From the NCBI GenBank assembly GCA_963695545.1, contig OY968796.1, positions 2,048,001-2,112,000 of the forward strand: a stretch of 64,000 bases of DNA, in the 5' to 3' direction. The notes under the pieces were generated by a model. It searched no databases. It saw only the letters and a list, made by a program, of their open reading frames with translations, and had not been told where the DNA came from. Each line of letters begins with the position of its first letter. Within the stretch, counting starts at the first letter, position 1. The stretch comes from Terriglobia bacterium (GTDB lineage Bacteria > Acidobacteriota > Terriglobia > Acidiferrales > UBA7541). The position numbers were made by a program, and so were the translations under genes. Shown here piece after piece: positions 1 to 56,701 of the stretch.

Positions 1-377
1 GCGTCGTAGTAGCGAGCGACTTCGCCGGGATGGGTGCGCGGGTAGCGGGCGGCGACGTCGGCGAACTTGCGTTCCGCGTCGGTGTCGCGGGTTTTTTCGT
101 CGCCGTAGGTGAGTTCGCCGGGCGTGGCGGGCTCGCTCGGTGTGGCGATGGGCGCTTCGTAAGTCTTGAGAGCGTCGCCGAGGCTGGCTTCGGCTTTCAC
201 GGTCTGCCGCTGCGTATAGAATCGCCAGCCGAAGATGCCCAGCGCGATGAGCAGCACGATGCTGCCGACGGTCCAGGCGGTTTTCTGGTGAGTGGCCACG
301 GCTTCGGCGCCGTGGACGATGCCGTCGCGGAATTCGTCTCGCTTCAATTCTTTGCGCGAAATGTAGTGCTGTGGCAC
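1..377 (-). CDS. Membrane-anchored TPR protein (YfgM-like), runs off window start
   Basis: Not in the ORF track. GTG at 377 with GAGGAG RBS; reads MPQHYISRKELKRDEFRDGIVHG...TAWTVGSIVLLIALGIFGWRFY (one TM), then a helical domain. Confidence 0.75.
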   Translation of the reverse strand, partial: MPQHYISRKELKRDEFRDGIVHGAEAVATHQKTAWTVGSIVLLIALGIFGWRFYTQRQTVKAEASLGDALKTYEAPIATPSEPATPGELTYGDEKTRDTDAERKFADVAARYPRTHPGEVARYYD

Positions 378-762
378 GAACCGCTCCTCAATTGTTAAGT
401 CCGGCCGTCATCGTATCATACCGGGCAGGCGAGTGCCGGAACGCGACGATTCCATGCGGATTGGCTGTTTTCTAGTGATCGGATACTGATGGCCGAGACA
501 GGGTATATATACCCCCGTACCAAAAACGTAAAATGATGATTGCAAAAGGTTTGCAGGGAAAGAGTGCGGATGAGTGTGAAAATAAATGTTTTGATATTGC
601 GTTGTTTCAATGAGATGCGCACTCTTTTGTAATTGATTGAAAACAAATGGTTTGGAAGGGCGATTCGATGCAGGGAATTGCAGTTTTTGCGGAGGGATCC
701 TTCGAGTCGCCCGACGCGCGGCTCGCCTGCCACGGCGGGCAGGCTCAGGACTCGAATGGTTG

Positions 763-788
763 GAAGCAATGCGCTCCGCGCAGACCGG
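763..788 (+). repeat. Single copy of the 27-bp repeat GAAGCAATGCGCTCCGCGCAGACCGG
   Basis: Identical over 26 nt to the tandem units at 29644-29751 and to 20456-20481. Confidence 0.9.
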
Positions 789-943
789 CGCCGGATGCTC
801 AAGTCGTGGAGATTGCGACAAAGCGCCCTTCGCGGCGCGTTCTGCGGAGGCGATCGGAGCAGACGGGAACAGGTAGCGCGGGCGAGCGGCGTGCGTTGCC
901 CGCAGTTTTGGCGGCGCAGGTGTGCGTTTCGAGGTCACACCCA

Positions 944-973
944 AGGTTAGCACGAACAATACTATGCTGTCAA
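944..973 (-). promoter_or_regulatory. Sigma70-type promoter TTGACA-N18-TAACCT with extended -10 TG
   Basis: Perfect -35 (968-973) and TGnTAACCT; conserved in the second copy at 51828-51857. Confidence 0.65.
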
Positions 974-1091
974 CATATATCTATGGGGTATTCGAATAGG
1001 GCATTCGAATGGAACGGATGGAATGGACCCACGCTTCGCTCGAGTATGATCCGACGGGAGTCGAACGCAGGTCAGGGCCCGCTCTGAGCAA

Positions 1092-47497: not shown

Positions 47498-48835
47498 GTG
47501 CCCCACACGTCGGATTTACGTGTGGGGATTTTGGTCGTTCTCTCGCTGCTCACGCTCGCCGCCAGCGCTCAAACCGCCCCGTCCGTTCCCGCACCGCCGC
47601 CAGCGACAATTCCGCTAACGCCCCCCATCGACACCACCGACGGCGCCGGCGCCTTCGCCACCCATCGCTACCGCAATCTCTTCGCCGAATCCGGCCACTC
47701 GAAAAAGGAAATCTCCCAAAAAATCAGCGCCGCCTACAAACAACTCTTCTACGGCGATCCCCAAACCCAATCCGTCTTCTTCTACACCGGCAAAAATTCC
47801 AACGGCCCGCTCGCCTATCTCACCGATTGGAACAATCACGACGTGCGCACCGAAGGCATGTCCTACGGCATGATGATTTCCGTCCAGCTCAACAAGAAAA
47901 AAGAATTCAACGCTCTCTGGAACTGGGCCAAGACCTACATGTACATCTCCGATCCCAAGCATCCTTCCTACGGCTATTTCTCCTGGTCCTGCAAAACCGA
48001 TGGCACGCCCAACGAAGAAACCGCCGCTCCCGATGGCGAAGAATATTTCGTGATGTCTCTCTATTTCGCCGCCGCAAGATGGGGAAATGGCGCGGGAATC
48101 TACGATTACAAATCCGAAGCCGACGCCCTGCTAACCACTATGCGCCATCGCGCCGAAATCGCTGGGCCGACAAAATTCGGCCCGCGCACCGTAGCCAGCG
48201 AAGTCGATGAACAATACAAAATGATCCGCTTCGTCCCGGTCGTCGCGCGCGGCGATTTCACCGATCCTTCCTATCATCTCCCGGCGTTCTACGAACTCTG
48301 GTCCCGCTGGGGCCCCGAGCCCGACCGCGAATTCTGGGCCGAAGCCGCCGCAGCCAGCCGCGCGTTCTTCGTAGCCACCACGAATCCGGCAACCGGCCTC
48401 GCCCCCGACTACGCCAATTTCGATGGCACCCCGCACCTCACGCGCTTCCCCCAATCCGGCATCTTCGGCTACGACGCCTGGCGCACCGCCAGCAATTGGT
48501 CCGTAGATTGGTCCTGGTGGCAAAAATCTCCGCCAGAGCAGCAGCTAAGCGACCGCATCCAATCTTTCTTCTCGTCTCAAGGCTTGTCGACTTATGGCGA
48601 CGTCTTCACTCTCGATGGCAAACCACTCGACGCAAATCACTCCACAGGTTTAATCTCCACAAACGCCGTAGCCAGCCTCGCCGCCACCAATCCCGCCTCC
48701 AAAGATTTCGTAGCCGCCCTCTGGAACGCCCCCATCCCGTCCGGCCAAAAGCGCTACTATGACGGCATGCTCTATCTCCTAAGCCTCCTCCACTGCAGCG
48801 GCAGATTCCGCATCTACATCCCGCACGGACTATAA
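47498..48835 (+). CDS. Glycoside hydrolase family 8 (Rex-like exo-oligoxylanase/xylanase), exported
   Basis: DVRTEGMSYGM, APDGEEYF, FTDPSYHLP, YDAWR, RYYDG; start uncertain. Confidence 0.9.
   Translation: MPHTSDLRVGILVVLSLLTLAASAQTAPSVPAPPPATIPLTPPIDTTDGAGAFATHRYRNLFAESGHSKKEISQKISAAYKQLFYGDPQTQSVFFYTGKNSNGPLAYLTDWNNHDVRTEGMSYGMMISVQLNKKKEFNALWNWAKTYMYISDPKHPSYGYFSWSCKTDGTPNEETAAPDGEEYFVMSLYFAAARWGNGAGIYDYKSEADALLTTMRHRAEIAGPTKFGPRTVASEVDEQYKMIRFVPVVARGDFTDPSYHLPAFYELWSRWGPEPDREFWAEAAAASRAFFVATTNPATGLAPDYANFDGTPHLTRFPQSGIFGYDAWRTASNWSVDWSWWQKSPPEQQLSDRIQSFFSSQGLSTYGDVFTLDGKPLDANHSTGLISTNAVASLAATNPASKDFVAALWNAPIPSGQKRYYDGMLYLLSLLHCSGRFRIYIPHGL
47501..47527. repeat. Palindrome CCCCACACGT-N7-ACGTGTGGGG
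   Basis: 10-bp perfect stem after acs, overlapping the GH8 start region. Confidence 0.55.
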
Positions 48836-48900
48836 GAATTCGCGTCAAACAAACCTCTGTGAAATGACCCAACTTGGATGTAGCATTTATATGTGACGTC

Positions 48901-49200
48901 ATGGCAGTGAAACTAAATTCTCGATTCGCCACCGCACAGGACACCGCTCATGTCCTCGGCGTACCGCCCCGCAGGGTCAAAGAATTAATGAAACTCGTTT
49001 ATTCCACGAAGGTTCGGGCTGCCGACGGCCGCCATTGGACGGTGTCCGCTGCAAGATTGAAGTCTATGTTCGCAGGAAAAACCTCTAAGGCGTTCGCAAA
49101 AAAGTCGTCGTCCGTTTCTTTAGGGACGAAATCCACCCGGAAACCTAGATCTCCTCGAAGGACCCAACCGCGTGGCAAAAAGTCGAAAAGCGCTCACTAA
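48901..49200 (+). CDS. Small basic protein with putative N-terminal HTH
   Basis: TAQDTAHVLGVPPRRVKEL helix-turn-helix-like; lower GC; overlaps the next gene. Confidence 0.55.
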   Translation: MAVKLNSRFATAQDTAHVLGVPPRRVKELMKLVYSTKVRAADGRHWTVSAARLKSMFAGKTSKAFAKKSSSVSLGTKSTRKPRSPRRTQPRGKKSKSAH

Positions 49201-49795
49201 GGTCTTCTTAAATATCCCCTACGACAAGAAATTCGAAAATCTGTTCCTCGCTTATATTGCGGGTATCAGCGCCTTCGGGCTCGTGCCGCGAGCGACGCTG
49301 GAGATATCCAGCAGCTCGCGTCGTCTTGAAAAAATACTTGGACTGATAGGCGCATGTCGTTATTCGATTCATGATCTATCCAGAGTCGAACTCGATTCGA
49401 ATGCACCGAGAACCCCTCGATTCAATATGCCATTCGAACTCGGCCTATCGGTCGCGTACCACAGGAACTTGAGGACCAAAAAGCACAAGTGGTTCGTCTG
49501 CGAGTCACGTGATCGCAGGCTATTGAAGTCATTGAGCGACCTGAACGGCACCGACGCCCACATTCACAACGGCAGGATCGTGGGAGTTTTCCGGGAACTG
49601 TGCAATATCTTTCTGCCATCTGATAGGAAGCCTACCGCGCAGCAGATGGGGAAAGTCTATCTGAGGATGCGGCGCAGTCTCCCGGAAATTCTTCACAAGT
49701 CGGGCGCCAATTCCGTGTATACGGCGAGGGTGTTTAAGGAATTGAGCGTCTTGGCAATCGCTTACGCCGATGAATTCGTACCTGTCAAGACGTGA
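49172..49795 (+). CDS. Hypothetical protein with TIR/nucleoside-deoxyribosyltransferase-like signature
   Basis: VFLNIPYD, KILGLIGACRYSIHDLS, NMPFELG, SDLNG resemble the NDT/TIR-like strand/helix pattern with the conserved Glu. Confidence 0.65.
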   Translation: MAKSRKALTKVFLNIPYDKKFENLFLAYIAGISAFGLVPRATLEISSSSRRLEKILGLIGACRYSIHDLSRVELDSNAPRTPRFNMPFELGLSVAYHRNLRTKKHKWFVCESRDRRLLKSLSDLNGTDAHIHNGRIVGVFRELCNIFLPSDRKPTAQQMGKVYLRMRRSLPEILHKSGANSVYTARVFKELSVLAIAYADEFVPVKT

Positions 49796-49800
49796 TCGGC

Positions 49801-49917
49801 GCCCTCTGGAACGCCCCCATCCCCAGCGGCCAAAAGCGCTACTATGACGGCATGCTCTATCTCCTGAGGCTCCTCCACTGCGGCGGACGATTCCGCATCT
49901 GGATACCAAGATCGTAG
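49801..49917 (+). pseudogene. Displaced second copy of the GH8 3' end
   Basis: Codon-aligned with 48716-48835; 8 mismatches in the first 99 nt; own stop codon. Confidence 0.92.
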
Positions 49918-51313: not shown

Positions 51314-51358
51314 GTCATCCCGAGGAGTCCTCGACGAGGGATCTCTCTGTCGCTTTTT
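51314..51358 (+). repeat. GTCATCCCG-type REP-like repeat upstream of GIY-YIG gene
   Basis: GTCATCCCGAG...CGACGAGGGATCTCTCTGTCGCTTTTT. Confidence 0.8.
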
Positions 51359-51710: not shown

Positions 51711-51755
51711 GCCATCCCGAGCGAGCGCAGCGACGAGGGACCTCTCCGTCGCCTT
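51711..51755 (+). repeat. GTCATCCCG-type REP-like repeat downstream of GIY-YIG gene
   Basis: GCCATCCCGAG...CGACGAGGGACCTCTCCGTCGCCTT; direct orientation with 51314. Confidence 0.8.
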
Positions 51756-51799: not shown

Positions 51800-52054
51800 C
51801 CCTATTCGAATACTCTATAAATTATCGTTGACACTGTAGTACTCTTCGTGCTAACCTCCTCTATGTTCCGCGATCGCCCATCCTCGCTGCCGAATATTTT
51901 CCGCGATCAGGATATTTCCGCCCGCAACTCTTCCAGAATCAACACTTCTGAAAAATCGCATTTTAAACCTTTTAGAATCACCAGTTCTGGCGCAAAGGAC
52001 TTAAAGTCGAGCAGAATCAACACTTCCAAAAAACCCCCGGGGGGTAGGGGGTAT
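51800..52054 (+). repeat. Dispersed promoter + AT-rich box element, copy 2
   Basis: CCCTATTCGAATAC, TTGACA (51828)-N18-TAACCT; AGAATCA at 51935, 51974 and 52013 (period 39); ends GGGGGGTAGGGGGTAT. Confidence 0.85.
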
Positions 52055-53860: not shown

Positions 53861-54007
53861 TCACCTCGCCGCGCGGCGACTGAACGCCGCGCCCACGCGC
53901 GGAAGGAGGCCATTCGCAGTTTTCGGCACACGCTGGGAGAAAGCGCAAAGCTCGCCCGTAGCTTCCGCTAGAATCAAGCGGACTTTGTAGCCACGACGCC
54001 GACTCTC

Positions 54008-56701
54008 ATGCCTTTCCCCGACACCTCCGAACACCGCCGCCTGCACGCGCCCGATAAAGCGCCCGTGCCCGCCTGGGCCAAGTGGGGCGCTTACGTCAGC
54101 GACCGCGCCTGGGGCACTGTGCGCGAAGATTACAGCGCCGATGGCGACGCCTGGAATTTCTTGCCGCACGATTTGGCGCGCAGCAAAGCCTATCGGTGGG
54201 GCGAAGACGCCATCGGCGGTTTCACCGATCGCTATCAGATTCTCGTTTTTGGTTTGGCGCTGTGGAACGGCCGCGATCCAATCTTGAAGGAGCGTCTTTT
54301 CGGCCTGAACTCGAATGAAGGCAATCATGGCGAAGACGTCAAAGAATATTATTTCTATCAGGACGCCACGCCGACGCACAGCTACCTGCGGATGCTATAC
54401 AAATATCCGCAAGCGGAATTTCCATACGCTCGAATCGTCGAGGAAAATCGCCGCCGCGGCCCCGGCGATCTCGAATTCGAGCTCATGGACACAGGCGTTT
54501 TCGACGACGATCGCTACTTCGACGTCGTAATCGAATACGCCAAGTTTTCTCCGGAAGATATCGCGATTCGCATCGAGGCATTCAATCGCGGCCCGGATTC
54601 AGCCGTGCTGCACCTGCTGCCGCACTTGTGGTTCCGCAACACCTGGGCGTGGAGTGATCCTGTCGGCGCCGAACCTGTGATAGCGCCGGGAGCCGCGGCG
54701 AAAGATTCCGTGAGCCTGGTTGCCGACGACACCGCAGCCAGTCAACTCGCGGGCCTGCCGTTTGCGTACAGCTTGGGTCGTCGCATTCTGTACGCGCCCG
54801 CGGGGGGCGTGCTGCTCTTCACCGATAACGAGACGCACGCCGAGCGCGTCTTCGGCCCGGGGCACGCGAGCAGAAGACCGCATGTGAAGGACGCGTTTCA
54901 TCGCCATATCATTCACGGCGAGGCGTGCGTGAATCCGGAGCAGCGCGGCACGAAAGCGTGCGTGAAGTACCGCATGGAAATTCCGGCCGGCGGCTCGACA
55001 GTTCTGCGGCTGCGCTTGGCGCCGGAAGACATCGCGGCGAAAGGAAGTAACGCGCCGCTTGCCGGCGTCGATGCTATCGTCGCGGAGCGGAAAAAGGAAG
55101 CCGACGAATTCTATGCCGCGATTCTGCCGCCGCGCGCGACGCTGGAAGAACGCGGCATTGCGCGCGCGGCGTTGTCGGGCATGTTGTGGTCGAAGCAAAG
55201 TTATTTGTACGACGTGTCGACCTGGCTCGACGGCGACAATCGCAATTCGCCGCCGCCGGAATCGCGCCAGCGCATCCGCAACACACATTGGCGCCACTTG
55301 AACTCGATGCGCGTGATGCTGATGCCGGACAAGTGGGAATATCCGTGGTTCGCCGCGTGGGATTTGGCGTTTCACGCCGTGGCGCTGGCTCTGGTCGATC
55401 CCGTCGCGGCTAAAGAAAATCTGTGGCTGCTGCTCTTCGAGCAATTCCAGCATCCGAACGGGCAAATTCCGGCGTATGAGTGGGAATTCTCTGATCTGAA
55501 TCCGCCGGTGCAGGCGTGGGCGTGCTGGCGCGCTTACGAAATCGAGCGCAAGCGCAGCGGATCGGGTGACCGCGAATTTCTCGAGCGCTGCTTCCACAAG
55601 CTGCTCATCAATTTCGCGTGGTGGGTGAACAAAGTCGATAGCCAGGGCCTGAACGTTTTTGAAGGCGGCTTTCTCGGCCTCGACAACATCACCGTGGTGG
55701 ATCGCAGCGAAGCGCTCTCGGGCGGCGCGATCCTCGAGCAATCCGACGCGACGGGCTGGATGGGTTTCTTCTGCCTGGCGATGATGCGCATGGCGCTCGA
55801 ACTTGCGCGCGGCAATCCGACGTACGAAGGACTGGCGACGAAATTCTTCGAGCACTTCATCTACATCGGCGCGGCGATGAAGCACATGGGCGGCCGCTCG
55901 TATCAACTTTGGGACGAGTCGGCCGGATTTTTTTACGATGTGATGCGCTATCCGAATGGCGACTTCCACCATTTTCGCGTGCGCTCGCTGGTGGGCTTGA
56001 TTCCGCTGTATGCCGTCGAAGTGCTGCGCGAAGACGAACTGGCGCAGCATCCGCAGTTTCTCGCGAATGTGGAATGGTTTCTGCGCAACCGTCCGGATCT
56101 CGTCGGCAGCGCGTGTTACACCGAGCGGCGCGACGGCGTGGCCTGCCACGTTCTTTCGATCGTGGACCGGTGGCAATTGCGGCGCATTCTCGAGCGCGTG
56201 TTCGATCCGGATGAATTTCTTTCGCCGCACGGTTTGCGCAGCTTATCGAAATATCACGAGCAACATCCATTTCATTTCGCCGGGCGCGAATTGCGCTACG
56301 AGCCGGCTGAAGCGGAAGTAAAGTTAAAAGGCGGGAATTCCAATTGGCGCGGGCCGGTGTGGTTTCCCACGTCGTTTCTGTTGATTGAATCGCTTTGCAA
56401 ATTTAGCGAGGCGTTCGGCCCTGAATTCACGGTGGCGGCAGGGAGCCAAGGGCGCGCGCTGACGCCGCGCGAGATGGCGCGGGAACTTTCCGAGCGCATG
56501 ATTGGTCTATTTCGCCGCGGCGCCGACGGGCGCCGGCCGGTGTACGGCGGATCGCGAAAATTTCAGCAGGATCCGCACTGGCGCGATCTGCATTTGTTCT
56601 ACGAATATTTCCATGGCGATAACGGCGCGGGATTGGGTGCGAGCCATCAGACAGGATGGACGGCCCTGGTCGCGAATTTGATCGACGATTGGCGCAAGTA
56701 A
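54008..56701 (+). CDS. MGH1/GH63-like glucosidase
   Basis: [47 protein letters not shown]. Confidence 0.9.

Follow-up and report, generated by a model that had tools for sequence, protein, structure and literature searches.

The window, the whole 64,000-nucleotide stretch of DNA that was analysed, carries two copies of a cassette and belongs to the study genome, a single 4.16-Mb contig of 60.6% GC (G000; other G-numbers denote relatives). In copy 1, on the minus strand, TTCGAA boxes at 1009-1004 and TATTCGAATA at 998-989 (feature 989-1009), likely the operator of some regulator, precede a sigma70-type promoter (944-973) with a -35 TTGACA at 973-968 and an extended -10 TGCTAACCT at 952-944. 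A leaderless stop-free frame of 176 amino acids (408-938) runs through the boxes and the terminal G-tract GGGGGTA (510-516), and the variable linker holds a GC-rich REP-like insert (722-753; REP label given by eye) that keeps the frame. The core (531-653) is of type B, with an inverted-repeat organisation: boxes at 653, 591 and 552 and inverted arms at 627-605 and 569-559. Copy 2, on the plus strand, is of a different subtype, type A, with 39-bp direct repeats. Its TATTCGAATA box (51803-51812) and sigma70-type promoter (51828-51857; -35 at 51828-51833, extended -10 at 51849-51857) are followed by a leaderless stop-free frame through the core (51863-52053), which stays open as far as 53860, antisense over a GNAT gene. 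The core (51926-52025) has three boxes at 39-bp spacing (box cores at 51935, 51974 and 52013) and a palindrome at 51997-52008, and ends in a double G-tract (52040-52053).

The 58-nt blocks of the two copies align without gaps at 46 of 58 identical positions, as the initial annotation had claimed, and the motifs it had listed (TTCGAA-type box, TTGACA and extended -10) were recovered in place in both copies, together with the start codons after the -10 (GTG 938 in copy 1, ATG 51863 in copy 2) and a GGGGGTA that starts 27 nt past the last box core (516 and 52040). A common 39-bp phasing of the boxes held for copy 2 (39+39 bp) but only in part for copy 1 (62+39 bp, one 39-bp interval). Likewise, a small-nuclease gene does neighbour both window copies (PIN, E 4.7e-16; GIY-YIG, E 2.8e-15), but the association does not extend to the family, in which the upstream gene is co-directional with the cassette in 54/110 copies and is toxin-antitoxin or nuclease-like, by eye, in ~14/110. 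REP-like repeats flank the GIY-YIG gene (51332-51356 and 51731-51755) and also lie upstream of the vapBC-like pair (~1790-1860). Elsewhere in the window, the 3' end of a glycoside-hydrolase-like gene is duplicated over 121 nt at 86% (48702-48822 and 49787-49907); the two repeats flank two small genes (48874-49795) with no Pfam match, and 48702-49907 looks like a small cassette integrated into the end of that gene.

A dispersed cassette family

About 110 copies of the cassette are present in G000, one per ~38 kb, so that promoter block and box array co-occur far beyond the two window copies. The promoter pattern has 68 matches in G000 and 0 in the reversed genome, and the family is therefore not a product of chance; ATG or GTG stands five bases past the -10 in 65 of these 68 matches. 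A profile search of G000 yielded 100 promoter blocks and 96 type-B plus 23 type-A core matches, and overlap removal left 110 cores; later locus counts are 108, with two transposase-split halves merged, or 112, with four promoter-only or weak loci added. The parts follow in the order TTCGAA box, sigma70-type promoter, leaderless start, variable linker, AT-rich box array and G-tract. Within type-A cores 32/34 intervals are 39 bp, and the termini of types A and B are alike in having a related last box, an A-run and the G-tract. IHF-like sites occur in 68/110 cores vs 16 in shuffles. Two type-A cores (G000 245,225-248,063 and 343,318-346,919) are interrupted at an identical palindromic position, in each case by a segment with an IS1595-like transposase gene, labelled by eye. 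Cassettes sit just upstream of co-directional genes in 77/110 cases, and they are more evenly spaced than chance, with a coefficient of variation of 0.57 (108 loci) vs a mean of 1.01 and a minimum of 0.69 in 10,000 intergenic-region draws.

Translation through the cassette was assessed from the leaderless frame, which is stop-free to the G-tract in 84/87 G000 copies with 33 expected, a count that omits 23 copies without a located start or G-run. In relatives the frame is open in 19/22 copies vs 7.0 expected, with 7/29 skipped. Stops are rarer just past the G-tract too (11/87 within 60 nt vs 61/174). All 17 type-A copies use one frame; the frame used for the type-B motif varies from copy to copy and its stop position is not conserved, which counts against the leaderless-peptide reading put forward in the initial annotation. 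A homologue search with the copy 2 peptide gave four candidates, none at E<=0.01. The other suggestion of the initial annotation, a non-coding RNA, lost ground as well: an Rfam search of the window returned a tRNA alone and no family for the cassette, and consensus folds were weak, with type-B arms lacking clear compensatory change. Translation through the boxes thus appears to be selected and its product not, and the open frame, the non-conserved peptide and the lack of covarying pairs together make the boxes look like DNA sites. Membership of a LexA regulon was considered and rejected, since lexA carries TTCGCC-N5-TTCGCC, a different motif from the cassette TTCGAA; this candidate LexA box lies at lexA (L001 1440-1475) and has 5 such matches in G000.

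Among 40 relatives the promoter pattern is present in 9 and the end pattern in 19; about nine of the latter exceed the control level, and these all belong to the same family. A type-A box pattern, whose strictness keeps it from demonstrating absence, matched a single time in 1/200 other genomes of the phylum. Twenty copies in G003 and G004 were picked by the promoter pattern; 8 of them share a G000 site by the downstream flank and another 2 by the upstream flank alone, and types A and B interchange at several orthologous sites. The shared sites, together with presence/absence and type swaps, suggest that the cassette is inherited but turns over. An empty site was found in G004, as sought in relatives. 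The site of copy 1, upstream of the gene at window 3-377 (L014-L018), is occupied by type B here and type A in G003, holds none in G004, and has other small genes in G001, G002 and G005. Logan contigs from four soil DNA runs, where the copy 2 region is in pieces, gave no empty site among the joints listed. As regards the terminal inverted repeats and target-site duplication expected of a MITE or an IS-derived element, cassette flanks resembled each other no more than shuffled pairs did in a coarse comparison with approximate ends. Copy number and presence/absence at orthologous sites support a dispersed and mostly non-autonomous mobile unit, along the lines proposed earlier.

Strand asymmetry around the cassettes

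The cassettes are an oriented family of ~110 copies that predicts the local strand asymmetry of the chromosome. Skew was measured at fourfold sites, corrected for gene strand and expressed on the cassette strand in 1-kb windows. The resulting kernel is -0.34 upstream of the cassette, reaches zero at ~+3.5 kb and peaks at +0.22 near +11 kb. Cassette position and strand account for local synonymous GC-skew variance with an R2 of 0.46, vs 0.014 (max 0.033) for shifted cassettes and 0.22 (max 0.23) for strand-shuffled ones (60 each). An up-flip lies at -1.5 to +8 kb in 74/112 cassettes and upstream in 2/112. Conversely, the nearest cassette points at the flip within 10 kb for 69/88 up-flips, with 22 expected; among 2,000 random shifts the maximum was 70/88, which was taken as a near-zero shift. 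The kernel is equal for genes on either strand, types A and B, both replichores and all 12 printed codon contexts, and is weaker in intergenic DNA. T/A skew in G000 is opposite to GC skew, and the G-rich strand is therefore purine-rich. No flip was called within 12 kb of 32/112 cassettes, including window copy 1 (-0.15, -0.05; no clear switch), and 14/88 flips have no cassette. Downstream of copy 2, an origin-like GC-skew switch lies at approximately 54000-55500 of the window (genome 2,102,750, window ~54,750), with skew of -0.58 upstream and +0.31 downstream. The even spacing and the oriented flip support a further suggestion of the initial annotation, that of protein-binding boxes with a chromosome-scale role, in which binding is a prediction.

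The best fit of a two-replichore model has an R2 of 0.002, so no oriC-ter skew is left. KOPS-like octamers nonetheless keep one ori-ter axis, with a peak at 3.385 Mb (3,384,861) and a broad trough near dnaA, which argues for a sound assembly. Mis-assembly as the source of the sawtooth was rejected on this intact polarity, and because the flips lie kilobases from repeats and up-flips alone follow repeats. Genes are biased to the global leading strand at 55.5%, and dnaA is intact. No host motif, gene-end or operon-end or junction type was found at flips in G000, no Chi-like word tracks the local flips, and no dif site was identified in G000. Consensus DnaA boxes number 81 in the genome, no three within 400 bp; the cassettes were accordingly dismissed as oriC, there being no DnaA-box cluster anywhere in G000. 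The sole 23S and 16S primer matches (G000 1,242,700 and 1,601,800) lie ~360 kb apart, which suggests that the rRNA genes are unlinked.

Six relatives, sampled over 290-400 kb with home-made gene calls, also exhibit sawtooth skew and no lasting switch at dnaA. Flips lie at -1.5 to +8 kb from 15/24 cassettes in four relatives vs 4.5 expected. Of these 24, seven are G023 sites of a second box family, and one in G015 was placed by estimate from its zinc-finger gene. The second family, of unrelated paired boxes (G023 C1 and C2; G010), has 33 strict matches in G023 and 4 in G010; the G023 boxes lie upstream of skew flips with cassette-like geometry at 4/7 sites. Across orthologous DNA in which a same-direction cassette is present in the relative but missing from G000, the relative carries C in place of G 1512 times vs 924 (28 blocks: 16 more, 10 fewer); with so narrow a split between blocks, a few loci weigh heavily in the pooled count, and the count at shared sites (830 vs 1038, 31 blocks) is not balanced either. 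At two collinear loci the cassette is reversed, and the counts are 146:28, 64:8 and 105:24 (L196) and 139:35 and 42:11 (L205). The skew is thus reversed in the same genes where the cassette points the other way, which ties it to the cassette and not to the genes.

Linked proteins and a phage-like cluster

A gene encoding a zinc finger and a helical bundle follows four G000 cassettes, belongs to no known family and is present in 22/40 relatives. A Foldseek search with its model gave no match at E<=0.001, the best (Z 7.6) being a plain helical bundle. A protein atlas places the protein near unnamed Acidobacteriota clusters, and named homologues of two family-linked proteins come from Ca. Acidiferrales, on which ground G000 probably belongs there as well. 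Three of the four G000 zinc-finger genes share a tail (best 13/14 residues) with a 93-aa gene of a phage-like cluster, and among 13/20 loci parsed the tails match the genome's own version in G003 and G020. The tail is absent from the type-A zinc-finger protein and from both readable G015 copies. The 93-aa gene has no family match; its product lies in the atlas near unnamed viral clusters and DUF5681 at 0.92, which is a lead only, and we infer that it may be a small terminase.

The phage-like cluster contains TerL (E 4.6e-41) and a head protein, both single-copy, at 55-92% identity in 13/40 relatives. The capsid is present in many cassette-poor genomes. TerL and Terminase_6N were not found in the cassette-rich G014, G018 and G022 (98-100% complete), and G022 keeps its flips (5/10). 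The portal family PF04860 gave no match. Head, terminase and initiator genes (G000 3,384,000-3,419,000, L035-L037) lie at the KOPS-like polarity peak, and an IS3-like element sits between the portal-like and capsid genes. The initiator-like gene beside the cluster matches phrog_1408 (E 2.9e-4), as do 32/38 homologues. Its model is winged-helix-like (best Z 5.5, rmsd 3.7, 83 aligned), and a fold search gave nothing at E<=0.001. It is present in 8/10 cassette-rich genomes vs 3/31 others, counts in which kin are not independent, and was not found in cassette-rich G018 nor in G023; in G014 it abuts a DnaB-like helicase gene. No box match was found in or near it, and a lambdoid or P22-type iteron origin was rejected, there being no cassette boxes in or beside the gene.

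Possible roles of the cassettes

The leading strand of bacterial replication is usually G-rich, and if this is assumed here the flips have the polarity of origins. The cassettes could then be mobile, transcription-driven zones of local replication start, many in place of one origin; this is the favoured reading from sequence, though one that we consider evenly poised between right and wrong. The regulated promoter would fire through a protein-bound box array, translation of a junk peptide would protect a C/U-rich RNA from early termination, and the transcript, acting through an R-loop or through activation by transcription, would start forks a few kb downstream, perhaps assisted by the phage-type initiator kept beside the phage-like cluster. 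Such forks would go both ways and meet those of neighbouring cassettes, giving an N-shaped skew. A start that is primed by a transcript or activated by transcription is consistent with the promoter, the G-tract and a frame that is translated into a meaningless product. The cassette may be of phage-satellite origin and slow-moving, the zinc-finger product encoded on a few complete copies would bind the boxes, and the cassettes could be evenly spaced because coverage by origins is selected for or because a resident copy excludes others nearby. Against origins stands the flip itself, which lies kilobases from the boxes, unlike in iteron origins.

An N-shaped skew is described, in work on mammalian genomes (PMC3320577), as a gradient of fork polarity between initiation zones; those domains share the shape but are megabase-sized and chromatin-defined, whereas the present ones are ~40 kb, sequence-defined and bacterial. 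The account of DnaA-independent, multi-origin cyanobacteria (PMC7198777) is alike in an irregular global GC skew and several origins, putative in our case. The portion used here names no cis element, whereas the putative starts of G000 are linked to a single repeated cassette, and this genome retains dnaA as well as KOPS-like polarity. The Bartonella run-off origin and BaGTA, as outlined in PMC2697382, resemble the present system in that phage-derived genes for replication and packaging are conserved on a bacterial chromosome and that replication is bidirectional from a non-oriC site (again putative here), but comprise one origin beside phage genes in place of ~110 dispersed, oriented, mobile cassettes and no oriC-ter skew.

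The cassette spacing of ~38 kb comes close to a P22-type headful and is one of several features that would suit pac-like sites of a host-kept, gene-transfer-agent-like phage head cluster, with the zinc-finger protein as small-terminase adaptor and the skew as a by-product of cutting, transfer and repair. This is unlikely on the sequences at hand, though it explains the tail mimicry best: the tails resemble that of the 93-aa gene, with genome-specific matches, and TerL and the head cluster are kept in single copy. Small terminases bind TerL by the C-terminus and gene-transfer-agent versions lack a DNA-binding domain, according to a review (PMC11841831); the small protein here likewise has no evident DNA-binding domain and accompanies a host-kept head cluster. 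Skew and terminase-free genomes are explained poorly, as a one-way process would hardly yield a two-sided skew or erase the oriC-ter skew, no terminase was found in three cassette-rich genomes of which G022 still flips, and the capsid is common where cassettes are few. The tailless type-A and G015 proteins and the lack of a family match for the 93-aa gene also tell against it. Phage satellites (SaPI/PICI) similarly bear an element-borne protein with the same tail, but here integrase, primase and att sites are lacking and four genes serve ~110 cis copies. Origin and packaging roles may coexist, and we tentatively entertain a fuller scheme, which is possible although doubtful, in which ~100 mobile, promoter-driven cassettes of phage descent at ~40-kb intervals would run routine replication, oriC-ter would be just a segregation axis, and the cassettes would also recruit terminase through the tail-mimicking zinc-finger protein and so spread origins between cells.

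The skew polarity could instead be reversed: forks would start diffusely and converge a few kilobases downstream of every cassette, the incoming one being halted there by bound boxes and by transcription that runs head-on. Long operons favour the C-rich strand by 49 to 26 and genes as a whole by 1600 to 1400, as do the highly expressed rpoBC, rps/rpl and atp operons, and this would fit flips as fork meeting points; the cassettes point at the flip and would then be co-directional with the fork, and the offset of kilobases would equal transcript length. Such fork traps are improbable given the usual G-richness of the leading strand, and the operon bias may stem from the position of cassettes just upstream of co-directional genes (77/110). 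Clusters of parS in G021 and G015 also lie within 3 kb of up-flips, unlike the weaker parS sites of four other genomes; in G021 the strongest flip of the sample is ~2 kb from a cluster of six. Fork traps, too, would require many initiation zones.

Less probable again is a selfish passenger that inserts in one orientation near pre-existing host initiation or boundary zones. Sawtooth skew does occur in G021 and, weaker, in G027, where no cassette was detected, which argues against the cassette as sole cause; three cassette-free G000 flips match cassette sites at orthologous positions in G003/G004, and a given site may carry type A in one genome and type B in another. However, within an unchanged set of collinear genes the skew changes sign with the direction of the cassette (L196, L205), the flips are not marked by any host motif, gene-end or junction type, and 5/9 non-rearranged sites occupied only in the relative have no matching flip in G000. 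A family of structured non-coding RNAs or leaderless peptides, favoured by the conserved promoter and start codon (65/68), the open frame (84/87) and the single type-A frame, appears largely refuted by the frame and pair counts and is very improbable, as the type-B frame and stop vary, the copy 2 peptide has no homologues, no Rfam family or compensatory change was found, and spacing and skew would be left unexplained.

Judged by sequence, then, the cassette family fits none of a non-coding RNA, a LexA regulon, an oriC or a self-iteron origin. RIP/RIB of E. coli (BIME-1 with an IHF site) are likewise dispersed intergenic repeats with IHF-like sites, and we know of no promoter of their own, open frame, G-tract or skew switch. 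A literature search, with subscription papers and supplements outside its scope, found no account of the cassette, in line with the earlier remark that the family was not recognised; the prophage and repeat passages of a comparative paper on Acidobacteria (PMC5900883), which reports prophages, do not contain this element. The family is real and chromosome-scale, and its mechanism is what we infer. The general view is that a bacterial chromosome replicates from a single origin; in G000, strand asymmetry is predicted every ~40 kb, at exact coordinates, by an oriented element that can be counted. Should the packaging reading be the true one, there would still be novelty in a gene-transfer system that has an adaptor of its own and ~110 programmed sites. 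In such soil bacteria, skew may mislead when it is used to call origins or to estimate growth rates.
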